Part shown: in pieces, positions 7,138-19,615 of the stretch
How positions within the stretch are numbered: the first letter of the stretch is position 1
Layout: every line of letters begins with the position of its first letter
Notes under the pieces: model-generated
Database searches by the model: none
Told to the model about the DNA's origin: nothing
Seen by the model: the letters and a program-made list of their open reading frames with translations, nothing else
Position numbers and translations under genes: made by a program
From: a virus
Taxonomy: Duplodnaviria; Caudoviricetes
Reading direction: 5' to 3' (one strand)
IMG/VR virus record: IMGVR_UViG_3300037067_026010
Coordinates: 96,001-160,000 of that record
DNA: 64,000 nucleotides

Positions 7138-7884
7138 TTAAGAAACAGCTGTCGGTTTATGAACGCCGAATCCGCGGAAGCTATCGCAACTGCGACTCTC
7201 GTCCACCCAGCAGGCGGCCACCGGCAGTATAGCACCGGCAATAAGTGCGCTATTGAGTAAGCCCAAGGCGGTAATCGTTCCTGCACGCTCCCAGGACACG
7301 CCCCTAAGTTCACCGCACACGTGGGGTACATCCAACGCTGCCTTGGTAATAGTCACCCGCTGTGTTATCAGGTGCCAAATCGCGGCTTTGTCCTCGCGCG
7401 TAACATCATTCAACACACTAATGATGGCATGGTGCTGGAGGTCTACAAAACCCTCCAGGAGAGTGCGCAACACGTCACGCTCCGCTCCCGAAATCTCCAG
7501 GTGGTTCGCAGAGATGTACAAGTCCAAGGCCCGTTCGATAATAGGGGCAGCTTCAGATTTTTTCTCCACGGTGGGCGTGGACGCCTCTGCCTGTGCCGGG
7601 GCCGGGGCCGGGGCCGGGGCTGGAGTCGCAGCAGGCACTGCAGGTGCCGCGAGCCTATCGATTAACGGCGCGGGCGGTTCCGGAATCGTGCCGCGGATCG
7701 CGTCGTAACACAGTATGGCGTATTCGCGTGCCGTCAGCTCTATCTCTTGCGCTCCACCCCAGCTATGTTTGATCGGTTGGCCGGCGAAATAGAAACATTC
7801 CCATCGCTGGGTGTCGCGAGCGCGGCCTTGATACCAGCCAGGCTCCTGTGGGATAAACGTATCGTGTGGAATCAGATTACGCAT
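7138..7884 (-). CDS. Hypothetical protein with Pro/Ala linker
   Basis: 248-aa ORF, AGGAG SD. Confidence 0.65.
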   Translation of the reverse strand: MRNLIPHDTFIPQEPGWYQGRARDTQRWECFYFAGQPIKHSWGGAQEIELTAREYAILCYDAIRGTIPEPPAPLIDRLAAPAVPAATPAPAPAPAPAQAEASTPTVEKKSEAAPIIERALDLYISANHLEISGAERDVLRTLLEGFVDLQHHAIISVLNDVTREDKAAIWHLITQRVTITKAALDVPHVCGELRGVSWERAGTITALGLLNSALIAGAILPVAACWVDESRSCDSFRGFGVHKPTAVS

Positions 7885-7889
7885 TTTTT

Positions 7890-8417
7890 TTACTCTCCTA
7901 AAGTTAGAAGTTCAGGGTATTTGTCGGGCAATAGGATACATCCGATTTTGTCCGTACTTACGGAACACGCCTGGCGTACATCACGTCCCGCCAGGCGCCA
8001 CAGGCCCTCGACGACAACGCAACCGGTACCCAATCCGACAACATCGCCACGCACCCAACACGGTGGCCACGGATCCGAACCGATCGTCGTGCGAACAAGC
8101 ACTGTCTCTCCGACGGCAGGCAGCCAACCTGCCGGCACGACAGGTCTCACGGCGTATCCGAAGTCCGGCAGAATGTACCAGGCCCTCCGTGGCGCGGCCG
8201 TATAATACCCCGGTTCGCGGTAAACCGCGACTCTGAAGCCGGTTGGCGACAGTTGGTCGATTTCGCCGTAGTCTGCCTGCTGGTCCGGCCAATAATGCCG
8301 GATGCGGACAACCTCGCCGATGCGCGGCACCCGCTTGGCCTGCACGACCTGCGCAATCGGCTTATCCCACAACATGCGTTCTTCAGGCTGTACCTGCGGT
8401 CTGGGTCGCTTTGCCAT
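7890..8417 (-). CDS. Hypothetical protein
   Basis: Start MAKRPRPQ after GGAGG SD. Confidence 0.55.
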   Translation of the reverse strand: MAKRPRPQVQPEERMLWDKPIAQVVQAKRVPRIGEVVRIRHYWPDQQADYGEIDQLSPTGFRVAVYREPGYYTAAPRRAWYILPDFGYAVRPVVPAGWLPAVGETVLVRTTIGSDPWPPCWVRGDVVGLGTGCVVVEGLWRLAGRDVRQACSVSTDKIGCILLPDKYPELLTLGE

Positions 8418-15858: not shown

Positions 15859-16039
15859 GTGATTTCCCTTCGTACAAATCATGGTTTTCGGTATTGGGTC
15901 AGGAATGTGTTGCCGGAATCCTTCTTGAAATGTTTTTTCTTTTTTGCAATCCACCCGAAAGAGTAATAGGCGCATCGGATTCCATTGGGATACATTGAAT
16001 CCAGCTTGGATTCCAAATGGCATTTCTAAGGGAAAAACT

Positions 16040-16693
16040 ATGATAGAACTCGAAAATTTGCGGGTTTCGCTCACAAAGAACGGGTATCTCAAGATCGCCA
16101 CGATTGTAGCAGAGCATCCCGGCCATGAAATGCTGGACCATGTTTCCGGCAGTCATGCGGGGGTCAACTTGGTCCGCTCACAAGTGGCGAACATTCTTTG
16201 CGCCGATCCGATAACCGGCACACTGCCAACGCTGTGGGATGATTTGCGGGATTACAATCTGCCGACGATCAGGGCATTTACACTTGTAGCGGTCATCTTC
16301 TCCCATGAACGATTGATCCGCGCATTTCTACGGGCTGGGCGCGGAACACCGTTTGGTACACTTCTTCGCAACGAAATGACCGAGAAGGAGTTTACGAATC
16401 TGCAATTTGCCATGTCGTCAGTGGGACTATGCGATTACCAACGCGGATCCGATCAAATCACTTATGATATGTCGGTTCTTACGGAGCAACTCAGCCGCGT
16501 CGGCGACTTGGTGCGCGAATTGTTGCGAGTCAAATTACAACGTTGTGGCTGGAGAGACCCTGATGTCTTCCGCATCGCGGCGGATCCTCCGGTTGAGGAA
16601 CAATGTATCCAAGAAGGCTTCCACGAAGTTTTTGGCATGACGGAGCATGCGTTCAGACAATGGCTTAGCGGCCGACCGAGACAGCCGCGCTAA
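16040..16693 (+). CDS. Unknown passenger protein, convergent with the MTase
   Basis: AAGGGA SD then MIELENLRVSLTKNGY; stop overlaps MTase stop. Confidence 0.7.
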   Translation: MIELENLRVSLTKNGYLKIATIVAEHPGHEMLDHVSGSHAGVNLVRSQVANILCADPITGTLPTLWDDLRDYNLPTIRAFTLVAVIFSHERLIRAFLRAGRGTPFGTLLRNEMTEKEFTNLQFAMSSVGLCDYQRGSDQITYDMSVLTEQLSRVGDLVRELLRVKLQRCGWRDPDVFRIAADPPVEEQCIQEGFHEVFGMTEHAFRQWLSGRPRQPR

Positions 16694-17310
16694 GCACCGA
16701 CCGCACTTGCCATCCGTTCGGATCGTGAGTAGCCACGAATAAATGGGCGACTTTGCAAATAGGTTTCCGCTTCGTCGCCCCATGATTTCCATCGTGGGCG
16801 CGGCGCACGCGCAAAGAGTTCGAGATATGGCCCGGGGCTGCAAGCCTCGATTACGTCGTACAATTCGTCCGGTTTTCGGGAATGTTCGCGCTTGCGAGAT
16901 TCGACGATGTTGACTTGCCGCCGTCCAGGCGCAAGGGTTCGCATTGAACCACGAACGCCGAAAAGAACAACTTCCGTCACGTTTCGGAAATAGAAACCGA
17001 CGCCACGGCCATCCGGTCCGCCGTCCTTTCGTATTTTGTACCAGATTATATTCGTTTTGTAGGTAAAGCCCCAAGCATCCAGAACATCAAGCCCCTCTTT
17101 TAAGAGAGCGTTCGGAACCCATAGATACAAGTGGCTCCGTTCGGCGCAATGTGATGCTATCGGCATATCGCAGATTTCATCCAGCGACATTGTCTGGTAT
17201 CGGCGAAGCCGTTGATGCTCCGGCGCAACCTTTCCAGTGCGATTATCGAACCTCCAGGGGGGGTCTGCTAAAATGGTGCCAAAATGCCCAACAAGGCCGG
17301 GAAGCGTCAT
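16690..17310 (-). CDS. MT-A70 family adenine methyltransferase
   Basis: ILADPPW, HLYLWVPN, WGF.YKTN..W.K, G.GFYFRN.TE, REHSRKP, YLELFAR, WGDE. Confidence 0.92.
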   Translation of the reverse strand: MTLPGLVGHFGTILADPPWRFDNRTGKVAPEHQRLRRYQTMSLDEICDMPIASHCAERSHLYLWVPNALLKEGLDVLDAWGFTYKTNIIWYKIRKDGGPDGRGVGFYFRNVTEVVLFGVRGSMRTLAPGRRQVNIVESRKREHSRKPDELYDVIEACSPGPYLELFARAPRPRWKSWGDEAETYLQSRPFIRGYSRSERMASAVGA

Positions 17311-17380
17311 ATTTCACCTGTAGCTTTTAATGGTTGTTTCGGTTATATCGGCTAAAAGACCGCCGATATTCAATTTTTCC

Positions 17381-17434
17381 GTCCACCCAAATTATACACA
17401 AATAAAAAACATTTGCAAGAGTTTTTGGGTGTAC
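17381..17434. promoter_or_regulatory. Inverted operator pair 1 over the MTase promoter
   Basis: GTCCACCCAAA (17381-91) ... TTTGGGTGTAC (17424-34); minus-strand TTGCAA-16-TATAAT (17418-17391). Confidence 0.65.
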
Positions 17435-17489
17435 AAAAAAGATCCATGCCGGATCTCAATCAGAGAGGAGAAAATAGTACTAGAAATGC

Positions 17490-17581
17490 GGCGGGTGTAC
17501 CGCGTCTTGGTCGGCGCAGCAGCCTTATAAACTGCCGTAGGTCTCGGCTATGCCGAAGGGGTTCAACTCCCACACCCGCCG
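17490..17581 (+). tRNA. Non-canonical (9/3) long-V-arm tRNA, anticodon UAU (allo-tRNA-like)
   Basis: 9-bp acceptor GGCGGGTGT/ACACCCGCC; 5-bp D-stem with GG loop; anticodon loop CTTATAA; V-stem TCGGC/GCCGA; 3-bp T-stem GGG/CCC with TTCAACT loop; discriminator G; no encoded CCA; followed by T7. Confidence 0.8.
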
Positions 17582-17799
17582 TTTTTTTCTTCAAGAATGT
17601 CGCTATTTTTCTTAAGAATTCGGTTTGAAACACGCAATAGCACATCGCGGACAAACTCGGAGGTATTTTTTGCTTTCTTTAATTTAGCGGCTTGTTTAAC
17701 GAGGGCATACTCCGCTTTAGGCATCCGAAAATATTGTTTGGGAGTCTCGCCTGTGCGGGGACGACCTCTACTACGGAGGGATTTAGCTTTCTTTTTCAT
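17563..17799 (-). CDS. Ribbon-helix-helix regulator
   Basis: GRPRTG..PKQYFRMP..EY.LVKQAA......SEFVRDVL. Confidence 0.7.
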   Translation of the reverse strand: MKKKAKSLRSRGRPRTGETPKQYFRMPKAEYALVKQAAKLKKAKNTSEFVRDVLLRVSNRILKKNSDILEEKNGGCGS

Positions 17800-17805
17800 A
17801 CCCTT

Positions 17806-17880
17806 AGTTTACGTCCACCCAAAATTTTTGTCAATTCAAATAATATTTGGGTGGACAAATAATCGATGACTGTGTATAAT
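17806..17880. promoter_or_regulatory. Divergent promoters (RHH / transposase) with operator pair 2
   Basis: Minus TTGACA-17-TAAACT (17834-17806); plus TGGACA-17-TATAAT (17852-17880); GTCCACCCAAA 17813-23 and TTTGGGTGGAC 17846-56. Confidence 0.75.
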
Positions 17881-17890
17881 ATGAATATCA

Positions 17891-17926
17891 ACAAAAAACC
17901 CCGGTCAGACTGGCATCCGGCCGGGG
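17891..17926 (-). terminator. Hairpin with U-tract upstream of the transposase
   Basis: CCCCGG...CCGGGG stem followed by T6 on minus strand. Confidence 0.45.
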
Positions 17927-18010
17927 CAATCACAACCAAGCGGTTAAGCCTGATAGCGACTAGACACCCCTATTTTAGGCTTGCCCGCTGCAAAATGCAA
18001 AGGGTAATCC

Positions 18011-19009
18011 GTGATAGCTTTCGCCTGCAAGCATGAACAAGTTAAGAAACAAGGCCATGATAGGAATGGCAATCAACGCTTCCGATGCACCGTTTGCGGT
18101 AAGACCTGGATTGCTTCTAGGGTTAAGCCGTTTGGAGAAATGAGGATCGACCCGAAGAAAGCCCTTCAAGTGATTGAAATGCTCATGGAAGGCGTATCCA
18201 TCCGTTCGGCCGTCAGGCTGACCGGCATCGCCAAGGGGACGATTTTGCGACTTTTGGAACTTGTCGGGGACCGTGCCCAATACTACTGGACAATGGCGAT
18301 GAAGAATCTACCGGCAGCCAACGTACAAGTGGATGAGACCTGGGGGTTCGTTTACGCCAAGGAAAAAACTTGCTTGCGAAAACACCTTGGCACTGATTGT
18401 GGGGATGCCTACACCTTTTTGGCAATCGAGCGCGACAGCAAGTTAATCCTCGCTTGGCATGTAGGGCGGCGAGACCCGCAAGACACCGCTTGGTTTTCCG
18501 AGAAGCTACGAAACAACACGATGGGTCGATTCCAATTGACCACCGATGGATTCAAGCCATATTGTACGGCAATCCCGGAAGCATTCATGGGTAAGATCGA
18601 CTTTGCCCAATTGATTAAGACCTACGGAAAGCCGACCGGAGAGAGAAAGGCGGAAGCCCGCTATAGCCCCGCCGAAATAACCGGCATACGCAAACGGGAA
18701 ATGTGGGGCAATCCCGATATGAACGCCGTCAGCACTTCGCACATCGAAAGGCAAAACTTGAATATCCGCATGGGCGTTCGGCGCATGACTCGGCTAACGA
18801 ACGCATTCAGCAAGAAGTGGGAGAACCACGAAGCCCACTTGGCCTTGTGGTTTCTCTACTACAATTTCTGCCGACCCCATGCTACATTATCCAAGGGAGA
18901 GAAAAAGGGCGAAAGAGGAACGCCGAAAACGCCGGGCATGGAAGCCGGATTGACCGATCATGTTTGGAGTCTCGAAGAATTGCTCAATACTTTAGCAACA
19001 CATTATTGA
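18011..19009 (+). CDS. IS1-family DDE transposase (single ORF)
   Basis: N-terminal Zn motif (C.H...QRFRCTVC), HTH EGVSIRS..RLTG, QVDETWGFV, TTDG, STSHIERQNLNIR...RRMTRLTNAFSKK, YNFCRPH, TPGMEAGLTDHVW. Confidence 0.93.
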   Translation: MIAFACKHEQVKKQGHDRNGNQRFRCTVCGKTWIASRVKPFGEMRIDPKKALQVIEMLMEGVSIRSAVRLTGIAKGTILRLLELVGDRAQYYWTMAMKNLPAANVQVDETWGFVYAKEKTCLRKHLGTDCGDAYTFLAIERDSKLILAWHVGRRDPQDTAWFSEKLRNNTMGRFQLTTDGFKPYCTAIPEAFMGKIDFAQLIKTYGKPTGERKAEARYSPAEITGIRKREMWGNPDMNAVSTSHIERQNLNIRMGVRRMTRLTNAFSKKWENHEAHLALWFLYYNFCRPHATLSKGEKKGERGTPKTPGMEAGLTDHVWSLEELLNTLATHY

Positions 19010-19615
19010 CCCAATACCTGGTTTTCGCATTTTCTTGTTTTTCTTCCGGGCTGCCCGTTTTGCCTCGATAAGTTCGGAGCACTTCGCCGTCAACGCCTCC
19101 GCGCAGGCTTGCTGTTGCTCGTCGTAGTCCTCCGCGTCCTGTTCGATGCCCAAGTGGTGGCATGCCGCGCGCGCTAATTCCTCGCCGAGACACTCCACGA
19201 CGTCGCCCACGGGGAGGCTGCTGTCGAACATTATGACCGCCCGCTTGCTTCGGTCGCTAGGGTATGTAGCATACCCTACTGCGCCGGCCTCCTCTTGCGC
19301 CAAATCCGGCTCCACCCACCAAACGAGCGGACAGGGCAAATTCGGCCACAACGCCATGTAAGCCCGCGCCAGCATGTCGAACGGATCGATGCTGAAGAAC
19401 CTGCAGCCCGTGTTGGTCCGCGCGACGCGCTTTGCAACGCCGGCAGTTCGGCACTCTTTCGTGAAGCTCGGGATGATCACCACGCTGAGGCATATTCCGG
19501 CAACCAGCATCCGGTGTAGATGCGGCGCCTCCGCCGGCAGTCCGAGGGCCAGCACGAGCCCCGCTATAAGCAGAAAGACGCGGCACGCCAGGAGCACGTA
19601 GACCTTAAACATCAT
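18992..19615 (-). CDS. Membrane-anchored protein with degenerate HExxH-like helix; C-terminus altered by IS
   Basis: Two TM segments; LGEELARAA; pre-insertion end would be MRKP-TGA. Confidence 0.65.
   Translation of the reverse strand: MMFKVYVLLACRVFLLIAGLVLALGLPAEAPHLHRMLVAGICLSVVIIPSFTKECRTAGVAKRVARTNTGCRFFSIDPFDMLARAYMALWPNLPCPLVWWVEPDLAQEEAGAVGYATYPSDRSKRAVIMFDSSLPVGDVVECLGEELARAACHHLGIEQDAEDYDEQQQACAEALTAKCSELIEAKRAARKKNKKMRKPGIGSIMCC

Follow-up and report, generated by a model that had tools for sequence, protein, structure and literature searches.

An IS1-family transporter insertion sequence in a large phage genome, with an allo-tRNA(UAU)-like gene in its backbone and a putative methylase cassette as passenger

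When a transposon carries genes beyond its transposase, which of them are cargo, and which belong to the transposon itself? This question is raised by a 64,000-nucleotide stretch of a Caudoviricetes genome (positions 96,001 to 160,000 of virus record IMGVR_UViG_3300037067_026010; hereafter "the window"), in which an intact IS1-family element of 3129 bp occupies positions 15890-19018 and is present as a single copy in the 210,569-bp record. A first-pass annotation, made from the letters of the window, had described a transposon with a four-part cargo, namely the open reading frame (ORF) ORF217, an MT-A70 methyltransferase gene, a non-canonical tRNA gene, and a ribbon-helix-helix (RHH) repressor gene. 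We instead consider it likely that the element is an intact transporter insertion sequence (IS) of a large IS1-family lineage, with a fixed backbone, a methylase passenger, and a plausible regulation involving the RHH protein, operator-like palindromes, and the tRNA-like RNA. The gene order reported earlier, with ORF217, the tRNA-like gene, and the transposase gene (tnp) pointing rightward and the MT-A70 and RHH genes pointing leftward, is borne out by the coordinates of the parts, with one correction to the layout, i.e., the RHH frame runs about 19 nt into the 3′ end of the tRNA gene. The parts of the element, with its inverted repeats (IRL and IRR) and the flanking target-site duplication (TSD), are as follows:

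15882-15889, no strand: left copy of the TSD, 8 bp, TGGTTTTC, identical to 19019-19026 and abutting the inverted repeat from outside
15890-15913, plus strand: IRL, GGTATTG...TGTGTTGC, complementary to IRR at 22 of 24 positions and matching the family end signature
16040-16693, plus strand: ORF217, the first passenger gene, with no Pfam, NCBIfam, or PADLOC match
16690-17310, minus strand: MT-A70 methyltransferase gene, the second passenger gene (Pfam PF05063, E 5.6e-31)
17490-17581 (17489-17582 according to ARAGORN), plus strand: allo-tRNA(UAU)-like gene, 92-94 nt, called Ile-UAU by ARAGORN and scoring 106 bits with a covariance model
17563-17799, minus strand: putative RHH repressor gene, encoding 78 aa and transcribed away from tnp, conserved as an ORF in 12 relatives
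18011-19009, plus strand: transposase gene (tnp), a single ORF of 332 aa with a GTG start and AUA at codons 2, 223, and 226
18995-19018, minus strand: IRR, 24 bp, overlapping the final tnp codons
19019-19026, no strand: right copy of the TSD, TGGTTTTC, abutting IRR from outside

Backbone and passenger were told apart by comparison with related elements, whose loci are designated here by our own labels (L002, L010, and so on). The 24-bp end signature GGTAGTG-N9-TGTGTTGC, accompanied by a perfect 8-bp TSD, recurs in at least 17 independent relatives ranging in size from 1,971 to 4,850 bp, and the structure of the window element is therefore not a product of chance. A tRNA-like gene lies close to the transposase gene in about 20 independent relatives, mostly from Planctomycetota and metagenomes, usually with an RHH gene between the two, and because the passengers of these relatives differ completely, the two genes are best classified as backbone rather than cargo. 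As delineated by this comparison, the backbone is made up of two 24-bp ends, the allo-tRNA(UAU)-like gene, the small divergent RHH gene, and a single-ORF DDE transposase, and of the four cargo parts initially proposed only ORF217 and the MT-A70 gene retain that status. Other family members carry SDH/Clp-like proteases or NYN, HipA-like, PIN, and Gp49/helix-turn-helix (HTH; HigBA-like) proteins as passengers, and further ones carry Panacea, Schlafen/AlbA2, a methylase-Mrr fusion, Bro-N, or thymidylate kinase. The fusion is found in a 4009-bp relative, in which the passenger lies 3′ of tnp (L018:3278-4738) and combines an N6/N4 DNA methylase with an Mrr-type endonuclease in 487 aa. The methylase cassette of the window would thus be one of many interchangeable selfish or defence-type modules ferried by this IS family, and in Planctomycetota and Acidobacteriota the family seems often to serve as a carrier of modules of the toxin-antitoxin, nuclease, protease, and methylase types. 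The general description of IS1 elements as usually free of passengers, on which the first-pass annotation had drawn, is untrue of this branch, where passenger-bearing relatives are common.

Single ISs with passenger genes inside their inverted repeats are an established concept, the transporter IS or tIS of Siguier, Chandler and colleagues (PMC7986276, PMC9330008), and the window element resembles them in having its passenger genes between the repeats of one IS. Both ORF217 and the MT-A70 gene lie inside the repeats, the same cassette is also found IS-free, and other passengers fill the slot in relatives. Unlike known tIS, however, the element combines a swappable passenger module with a non-coding RNA and a repressor that keep their place next to the transposase, and no tIS of this design was described in the literature searched.

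The RNA itself departs from canonical tRNA in its predicted structure. Folded manually, the RNA has an acceptor stem of 9 bp, a T stem of 3 bp, and a D stem of 5 bp, together with a long variable arm, a discriminator G, and the anticodon UAU; the best Rfam match was tRNA-Sec, at 38 bits and under the gathering score. A covariance model built from three copies located the RNA at 16 distinct loci, in each case on the strand of tnp and 130-540 bp 5′ of it, and it also found the RNA in L098/99, L091, L104, and L105/106. In the resulting alignment of 16 sequences, pairing extends to 94.7% of cells and compensatory changes are seen at 17 of 26 pairs, while none of 500 shuffles reached the observed pairing values and no slid register came near them either. 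The 9-bp acceptor helix is 94% paired and the 3-bp T stem 100%, the variable-arm helix shows compensatory changes, and the anticodon loop YUUAUAN is invariant across the alignment. With its 12-bp acceptor branch, long variable arm, and UAU anticodon, the RNA is structurally a member of the allo-tRNA (9/3) UAU group, as far as covariation and predicted folding can tell.

The allo-tRNA(UAU) class was published in 2017 (Mukai et al., Nucleic Acids Res, PMC5389517; review PMC7609411), and a connection with transposable elements was even then suspected by its authors (PMC5389517). Whereas this published association with transposons is vague, the RNA studied here occupies a fixed place in an IS1-family backbone and is accompanied by matching AUA codons in tnp, so that, within the loci aligned, the family comparison narrows what had been a loose allo-tRNA/transposon association to a set position in a single IS family. 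Literature searches returned no paper joining allo-tRNA with a transposase, and none on ISMhu11. Taken singly, the ingredients of the element are of known kinds, and the earlier statement that their combination had not been described stands only in part: passenger-carrying ISs and allo-tRNA(UAU) were both already published, while the literature searched held no description of a fixed backbone position of the tRNA, of its match to tnp codons, or of a dual-operator wiring.

A possible role for this RNA is suggested by the codons of the transposase genes, of which 70 were analysed. ATA makes up 13% of Ile codons overall, and its share is 0-16% in twelve further columns of conserved Ile. In contrast, the Ile of the YSPxxI motif (residue 223 of the window transposase) is encoded by ATA in 28 of 36 cases overall and in all 17 elements with the UAU RNA. 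Among the eight complete elements without a covariance-model match, six have GTA, TGC, ATC, ATC, GTG, and CCC at 223, and two (L041 and L025) have ATA despite the lack of a match, although ARAGORN finds a short UAU tRNA-like gene in L025. ATA is also found at position 223 and at codon 2 of the distant L104 and L105 transposases, and codon 2 is ATA in 12 of the 17 tRNA-bearing elements. Protein identities of 32-75% should leave synonymous sites scrambled, so that selection on the AUA codon would be the simplest reading, and the retention of this codon along with the RNA suggests a private decoder. In RNA-less relatives, residue 223 is V, C, I, or P and never S, and an Ile-like reading is therefore favoured over the insertion of serine. 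Under the mechanism we propose, the tRNA-like RNA would probably decode the rare AUA at tnp codon 2 and in the YSPxxI motif. The element would then need its own RNA to make transposase, and this RNA would act as a private translational gate on transposition.

A further level of control may be provided by the small gene between the tRNA and tnp. Where the gap between these two measures about 380-450 bp, it is taken up by a short ORF on the minus strand that encodes the motif RGRP...IRL...W(A/I)R..LL.AAK (12 relatives), and where it measures about 130 bp this ORF is absent. The window protein scores 19.6 bits against TacA1, below the cut-off of 21, while the ORFs of relatives have weak Pfam matches that are NikA-like in 6 of 12 (best E 1.8e-6) and TacA1-like in 4 of 12, and profile matches in PDB are to DUF1778 and CopG proteins (E 0.004-0.07). 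An AlphaFold2 (AF2) model consists of an extended strand segment and two helices, and its Foldseek neighbours are nearly all RHH proteins (AtaR, TacA, Arc, NikR), but with E values of at least 0.26, none of them significant. Sequence and predicted fold thus provide weak but consistent evidence that points to an RHH protein. The two operator pairs noted in the first-pass annotation are real palindromes, which have an arm in common (GTCCACCCAAA / TTTGGGTG(G/T)AC):

17381-17434, no strand: operator-like palindrome 1, GTCCACCCAAA ... TTTGGGTGTAC, between the methylase start and the tRNA gene
17813-17856, no strand: operator-like palindrome 2, GTCCACCCAAA ... TTTGGGTGGAC, spanning the predicted divergent RHH and tnp promoters

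Palindrome 2 is overlapped by both of these predicted promoters, P(tnp) (TGGACA-17-TATAAT, 17852-17880) and P(RHH) (TTGACA-17-TAAACT, 17834-17806), and palindrome 1 abuts a predicted methylase promoter on the minus strand (-10 at 17396-17391, -35 at 17418-17413). In each relative, the spacer between the RHH gene and tnp contains an element-specific palindrome bracketing a TTGACA / TACAAT-type promoter; both palindromes of the window element are kept in L098 and L104, and palindrome 1 is decayed in L091. From this arrangement we infer that the RHH protein binds the palindromes. An RHH dimer on the palindrome over the divergent promoters would repress its own gene and the transposase gene, and the second palindrome, at the methylase promoter, would extend the control by this repressor to the passenger and perhaps to the tRNA. 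Such a repressor-operator design plausibly links the expression of transposase and methylase, and to this extent the earlier proposal of one repressor tying transposition to the cargo remains plausible, the tRNA being no part of that cargo. Controller-protein type II restriction-modification (R-M) systems and res-promoter Tn3 passengers offer a parallel, in that a small DNA-binding protein and palindromes couple a module to its element. Unlike in controller-protein R-M systems, however, the regulator here is of the RHH rather than the HTH type and would also control a transposase, and no endonuclease was identified.

Between the divergent promoters and the start codon of the transposase lies a structured leader, which was defined from an alignment of 15 relatives:

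17899-18010, plus strand: tnp leader, with a GC hairpin at 17899-17926 and a second hairpin beside the ribosome-binding site

The first of these hairpins shows compensatory changes, and with the A-run that precedes it the GC hairpin resembles an intrinsic terminator on the minus strand, where a weak terminator-like Rfam match was also obtained. The second hairpin, the 3′ arm of which reaches the ribosome-binding site, probably limits tnp translation. The leader (17885-18016) is kept in L002, L010, L015, L018-L021, L023, L026-L028, L033, L036, and L057.

Taken together, these elements of control lead to a reading in which an IS1-family lineage encodes its own non-canonical tRNA that reads fixed AUA codons in tnp, while an RHH protein co-regulates tnp, the methylase, and possibly the RNA. 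We put this forward tentatively, at somewhat less than an even chance of being right as a whole. If true, it would mean that a transposon controls its own movement by a dedicated decoder RNA, a form of control of which we know no example among DNA transposons. It would also provide a function for the allo-tRNA(UAU) class, unexplained since 2017, and a private decoder would explain why this is the commonest allo-tRNA in soil metagenomes. Several observations weigh against it. Five of the 17 tRNA-bearing relatives use ATT or ATC as codon 2, so that the AUA link is not absolute, and shared ancestry inflates the AUA codon counts. Promoter prediction found none directly upstream of the tRNA gene, and the second operator upstream of the tRNA, sought in all relatives, is confined to the methylase-bearing lineage plus a half-site in L028. 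Finally, six allo-tRNA(UAU) variants assayed as amber suppressors showed no activity in E. coli, and toxicity was seen with two of them (PMC5389517); because the anticodon had been altered, however, this test does not exclude an anticodon-dependent charging.

The principal alternative to a decoder is a tRNA-like RNA that is not used in translation, but serves the transposon as a structural or regulatory RNA, for instance as an RNase P/Z processing site, as a read-through barrier to tnp, or as an antisense of the convergent RHH mRNA. The location of the gene would suit such roles, directly 5′ of the tnp leader on the same strand, overlapped at its 3′ end by the RHH frame, and only about 130 nt from the tnp start in RHH-less elements. 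The T loop is non-canonical in half of the RNA copies, and the inactivity of the allo-tRNA(UAU) variants in E. coli translation tests (PMC5389517, PMC7609411) points the same way. However, a non-translational role leaves unexplained both the invariance of UAU amid heavy stem covariation and the finding that AUA is retained at set positions of tnp solely in elements with the RNA. Moreover, the UAU tRNA-like gene of L002, a Thermoguttaceae genome with a transposase 71% identical to that of the window, is on the opposite strand, which suits a trans-acting RNA better than a cis barrier. We therefore consider this alternative unlikely, although it deserves to be taken seriously.

Other odd tRNA-like genes were observed in relatives (L085:857-951, L063:2058-2146, L031:3841-3931, L038:310-399, L006:4738-4814 on the minus strand, and L053:3087-3164). 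They include class-II (Ser/Leu-like) bodies that have the anticodons UUA, UAC, and GAU, and one Ala-AGC-like gene; the one with the UUA anticodon is an ochre suppressor with an encoded CCA, and L053 has two tRNA-like genes in tandem.

In contrast to the backbone genes, the passenger can be followed outside of the element. By the distribution of its homologues, the only true passenger is the two-gene cassette of ORF217 and MT-A70, which is also found alone in Planctomycetota chromosomes: it lies inside an IS in five contexts (the window, L091, L098/99, L104, and L105/106) and is IS-free in four (L092, L093, L094-97, and the P0124 contig). In one of the latter (L093:3112-4713), it adjoins a DndB-family gene. 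A tblastn search of the cargo against loci chosen by their transposase had found nothing, as if the cassette were unique to the window copy, a view overturned by tracing the homologues of ORF217, of which there are 47, mostly in Planctomycetota. In every neighbourhood inspected, ORF217 is convergent with the MT-A70 gene and only a few bases away from it. The MT-A70 protein has a DPPW motif, which makes it a putative N6-adenine DNA methyltransferase, and matches the PADLOC model MTase_II with an E value of 6.8e-94; on a phage, it could also methylate phage DNA. MT-A70 is 71-88% identical to its copies in Planctomycetota contigs, and the corresponding range for ORF217 and its homologues is 40-69%.

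For ORF217, we relied on predicted structure. The AF2 model (predicted local distance difference test score 92.7) is mostly helical, without a nuclease-like core, and a candidate assignment to the PD-(D/E)XK nucleases was rejected because the conserved D67 and K116 sit in helices of the model. An exhaustive structural scan placed BrxA (7zge, Z 7.7), its relative 3bhw (Z 6.9), and SspB (Z 5.7) above the rest. The predicted fold aligns with BrxA of the BREX defence system over nearly its full length (156 residues), and both proteins are encoded beside a DNA methylase; unlike BrxA of BREX, ORF217 is without sequence similarity, and no other BREX genes are present. SspB, the weak third match, is a protein of a phosphorothioate (DNA sulphur-modification) defence system. 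The likeness to BrxA is itself open to doubt, as the Z values are only middling and within the range that helical proteins reach by chance. Foldseek returned nothing significant for ORF217 against PDB, and a protein atlas gave chance-level scores.

The strict pairing of the two genes and the higher conservation of the methylase resemble an R-M pair, although no restriction activity can be claimed from these sequences. An alternative view of the passenger would go further and see in ORF217 and MT-A70 an unconventional R-M addiction pair, with a DNA-damaging ORF217 that makes the loss of the element costly. The genes are indeed convergent and tightly packed, ORF217 was not once seen without the methylase in 10 contexts, a methylase better conserved than its partner is usual for R-M pairs, and the methylase model matched in PADLOC is a type II one. 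However, ORF217 consists almost entirely of helices and matches neither PD-(D/E)XK and HNH nor any other nuclease, and its best structural neighbours are DNA-binding proteins of the BrxA type, at a Z of only 7.7. An addiction pair is a doubtful interpretation in our view.

The first-pass annotation had held that its reading would fail if the cargo genes never occurred together elsewhere, and they do co-occur. The full layout of ORF217, MT-A70, tRNA, RHH, and tnp is seen again in L098/L099, L104, and L105/L106, and in decayed form in L091, with IRL directly upstream of ORF217 in these loci too. With the same layout in four other loci, the window element is therefore, by comparative evidence, part of an established transposon lineage. 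L098/99 is a Thermoguttaceae metagenome-assembled genome, with ORF217 and MT-A70 inside an IS of the family; L104 is a complete element of 3363 bp with perfect inverted repeats and the TSD AAATTGCC; L105/106 is an element of 3625 bp with the TSD TCTGCAAT; and L091 is a decayed copy with a transposase remnant. The transposases of L104 (5963-6994) and L105 (5842-6861) are only 32-33% identical to that of the window, but the left halves of these elements are about 68% identical to its own in DNA, which suggests that modules are exchanged between IS1-family backbones.

These same loci bear on the original proposal, i.e., that ORF217, methylase, tRNA, and RHH are all cargo of an ordinary IS1 and together form a new defence/addiction module. 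All four parts do occur together in L098/99, L104, L105/106, and L091, both operators are kept in methylase-bearing relatives, and the methylase matches type II methylase models of PADLOC. Yet the tRNA and RHH genes accompany tnp in about 15 more relatives that have other passengers and no methylase, the methylase pair occurs without tRNA or RHH in L092, L093, and L094, and no nuclease or toxin is recognisable among the genes of the element. A four-part module thus seems improbable, and the division into a fixed backbone and a two-gene passenger accounts better for the loci compared.

The assignment to the IS1 family is based primarily on the transposase, which was rightly annotated as intact from the start: its single ORF passes the IS1 models of both Pfam (PF03400, DDE_Tnp_IS1; 26.8 bits, cut-off 24.1) and NCBIfam (NF033558, transpos_IS1; 101.2 bits, cut-off 100). 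An IS1/IS1595-type zinc motif is found at the N-terminus (NF050000, 37 bits vs a cut-off of 28), with C6, H8, C26, and C29 invariant in the transposase alignment, and InsAB of E. coli IS1 aligns at 25% identity over 80% of the query (tblastn, E 2e-7). About 8000 relatives were found, mainly in Thermoguttaceae, Gemmataceae, other Planctomycetota, Acidobacteriota, and soil or peat metagenomes, and those bearing a name are of the IS1 family. The ends of this family start with GGnnnTG and its TSDs measure 8-9 bp, in keeping with the GGTATTG at both ends of the window element and its 8-bp TSD. The element hence shares with E. coli IS1 the DDE transposase, the N-terminal zinc finger, the type of ends, and the length of the TSD. 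Classical IS1 elements, however, encode their transposase in the overlapping ORFs insA and insB′ with a -1 frameshift rather than in one ORF, measure about 0.75-1.2 kb (about 0.8 kb for E. coli IS1) rather than 3.1 kb, and have none of the built-in tRNA-like, RHH, and passenger genes. ISfinder includes an IS1 subgroup whose members reach about 4.6 kb. The element therefore fits a single-ORF, passenger-carrying fringe of the IS1 family and not classical IS1.

The boundaries of the element could be placed exactly. The 24-bp repeats matching at 22 positions and the exact 8-bp TSD, both reported in the first-pass annotation, were recovered at 15890-15913 and 18995-19018 and directly outside of them. 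The G+C content is about 57% in the flanks and 46-53% within the element. On the minus strand, the insertion point falls in the last codons of a phage gene: excision of the element and one TSD copy in silico restores the end of this upstream gene, ...MRKP-TGA, and with the element in place its frame continues for 8 codons into the right repeat. The insertion thus struck the 3′ terminus of a gene carried by a contractile-tailed phage of 210 kb, and it duplicated 8 bp of the target. The exact 21-nt pattern of an empty site had no match in IMG/VR, and the flanking phage protein has no relatives there and no close phage relative was found; the case for "recent" therefore comes down to the intact ends and the exact TSD. 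That the record, which is metagenome-assembled, is chimeric at this place, or that the element is a dead relic without present activity, is very improbable given an exact 8-bp TSD at both junctions within one contig, a TGA stop restored to the upstream phage gene on removal of the element, and four ORFs, an RNA, and two ends that are all intact. The flanking phage genes (15364-15861 and 19019-19615, both on the minus strand) are paralogues with similar hydrophobic N-termini (MFKIYLVLL... and MMFKVYVLL...), and the insertion lengthens the upstream one by 8 residues and parts the pair by 3.1 kb.

PHROG matches to a baseplate wedge, a tail sheath, a UvsX-like recombinase, and a polymerase-exonuclease, along with the IMG/VR classification, support the host record being a large contractile-tailed phage of 210 kb; the Pfam terminase (PF03237) and capsid (PF05065) models had no match anywhere in the record. 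The element shows that a passenger-ferrying vehicle of this kind can land in a phage genome, where it would supply a DNA methylase and, with the sole tRNA gene detected by ARAGORN in the whole record, the phage's only tRNA gene. In the long ORFs of the phage, AUA accounts for 19% of Ile codons (307/1615). Across the 2.9 million contigs of IMG/VR, relatives of the transposase occur in only 12, and the UAU RNA in a single other contig, so that the carriage of such an element by a phage is unusual, but not unique. This other viral contig (IMGVR_UViG_3300035688_000057, our L010 and L107) has a related element with a transposase 73% identical to that of the window, the UAU RNA, and the RHH gene. 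It also has a thymidylate kinase gene between tnp and the right-end repeat at 7703-7726, and another left-end-like repeat at 8110-8133.

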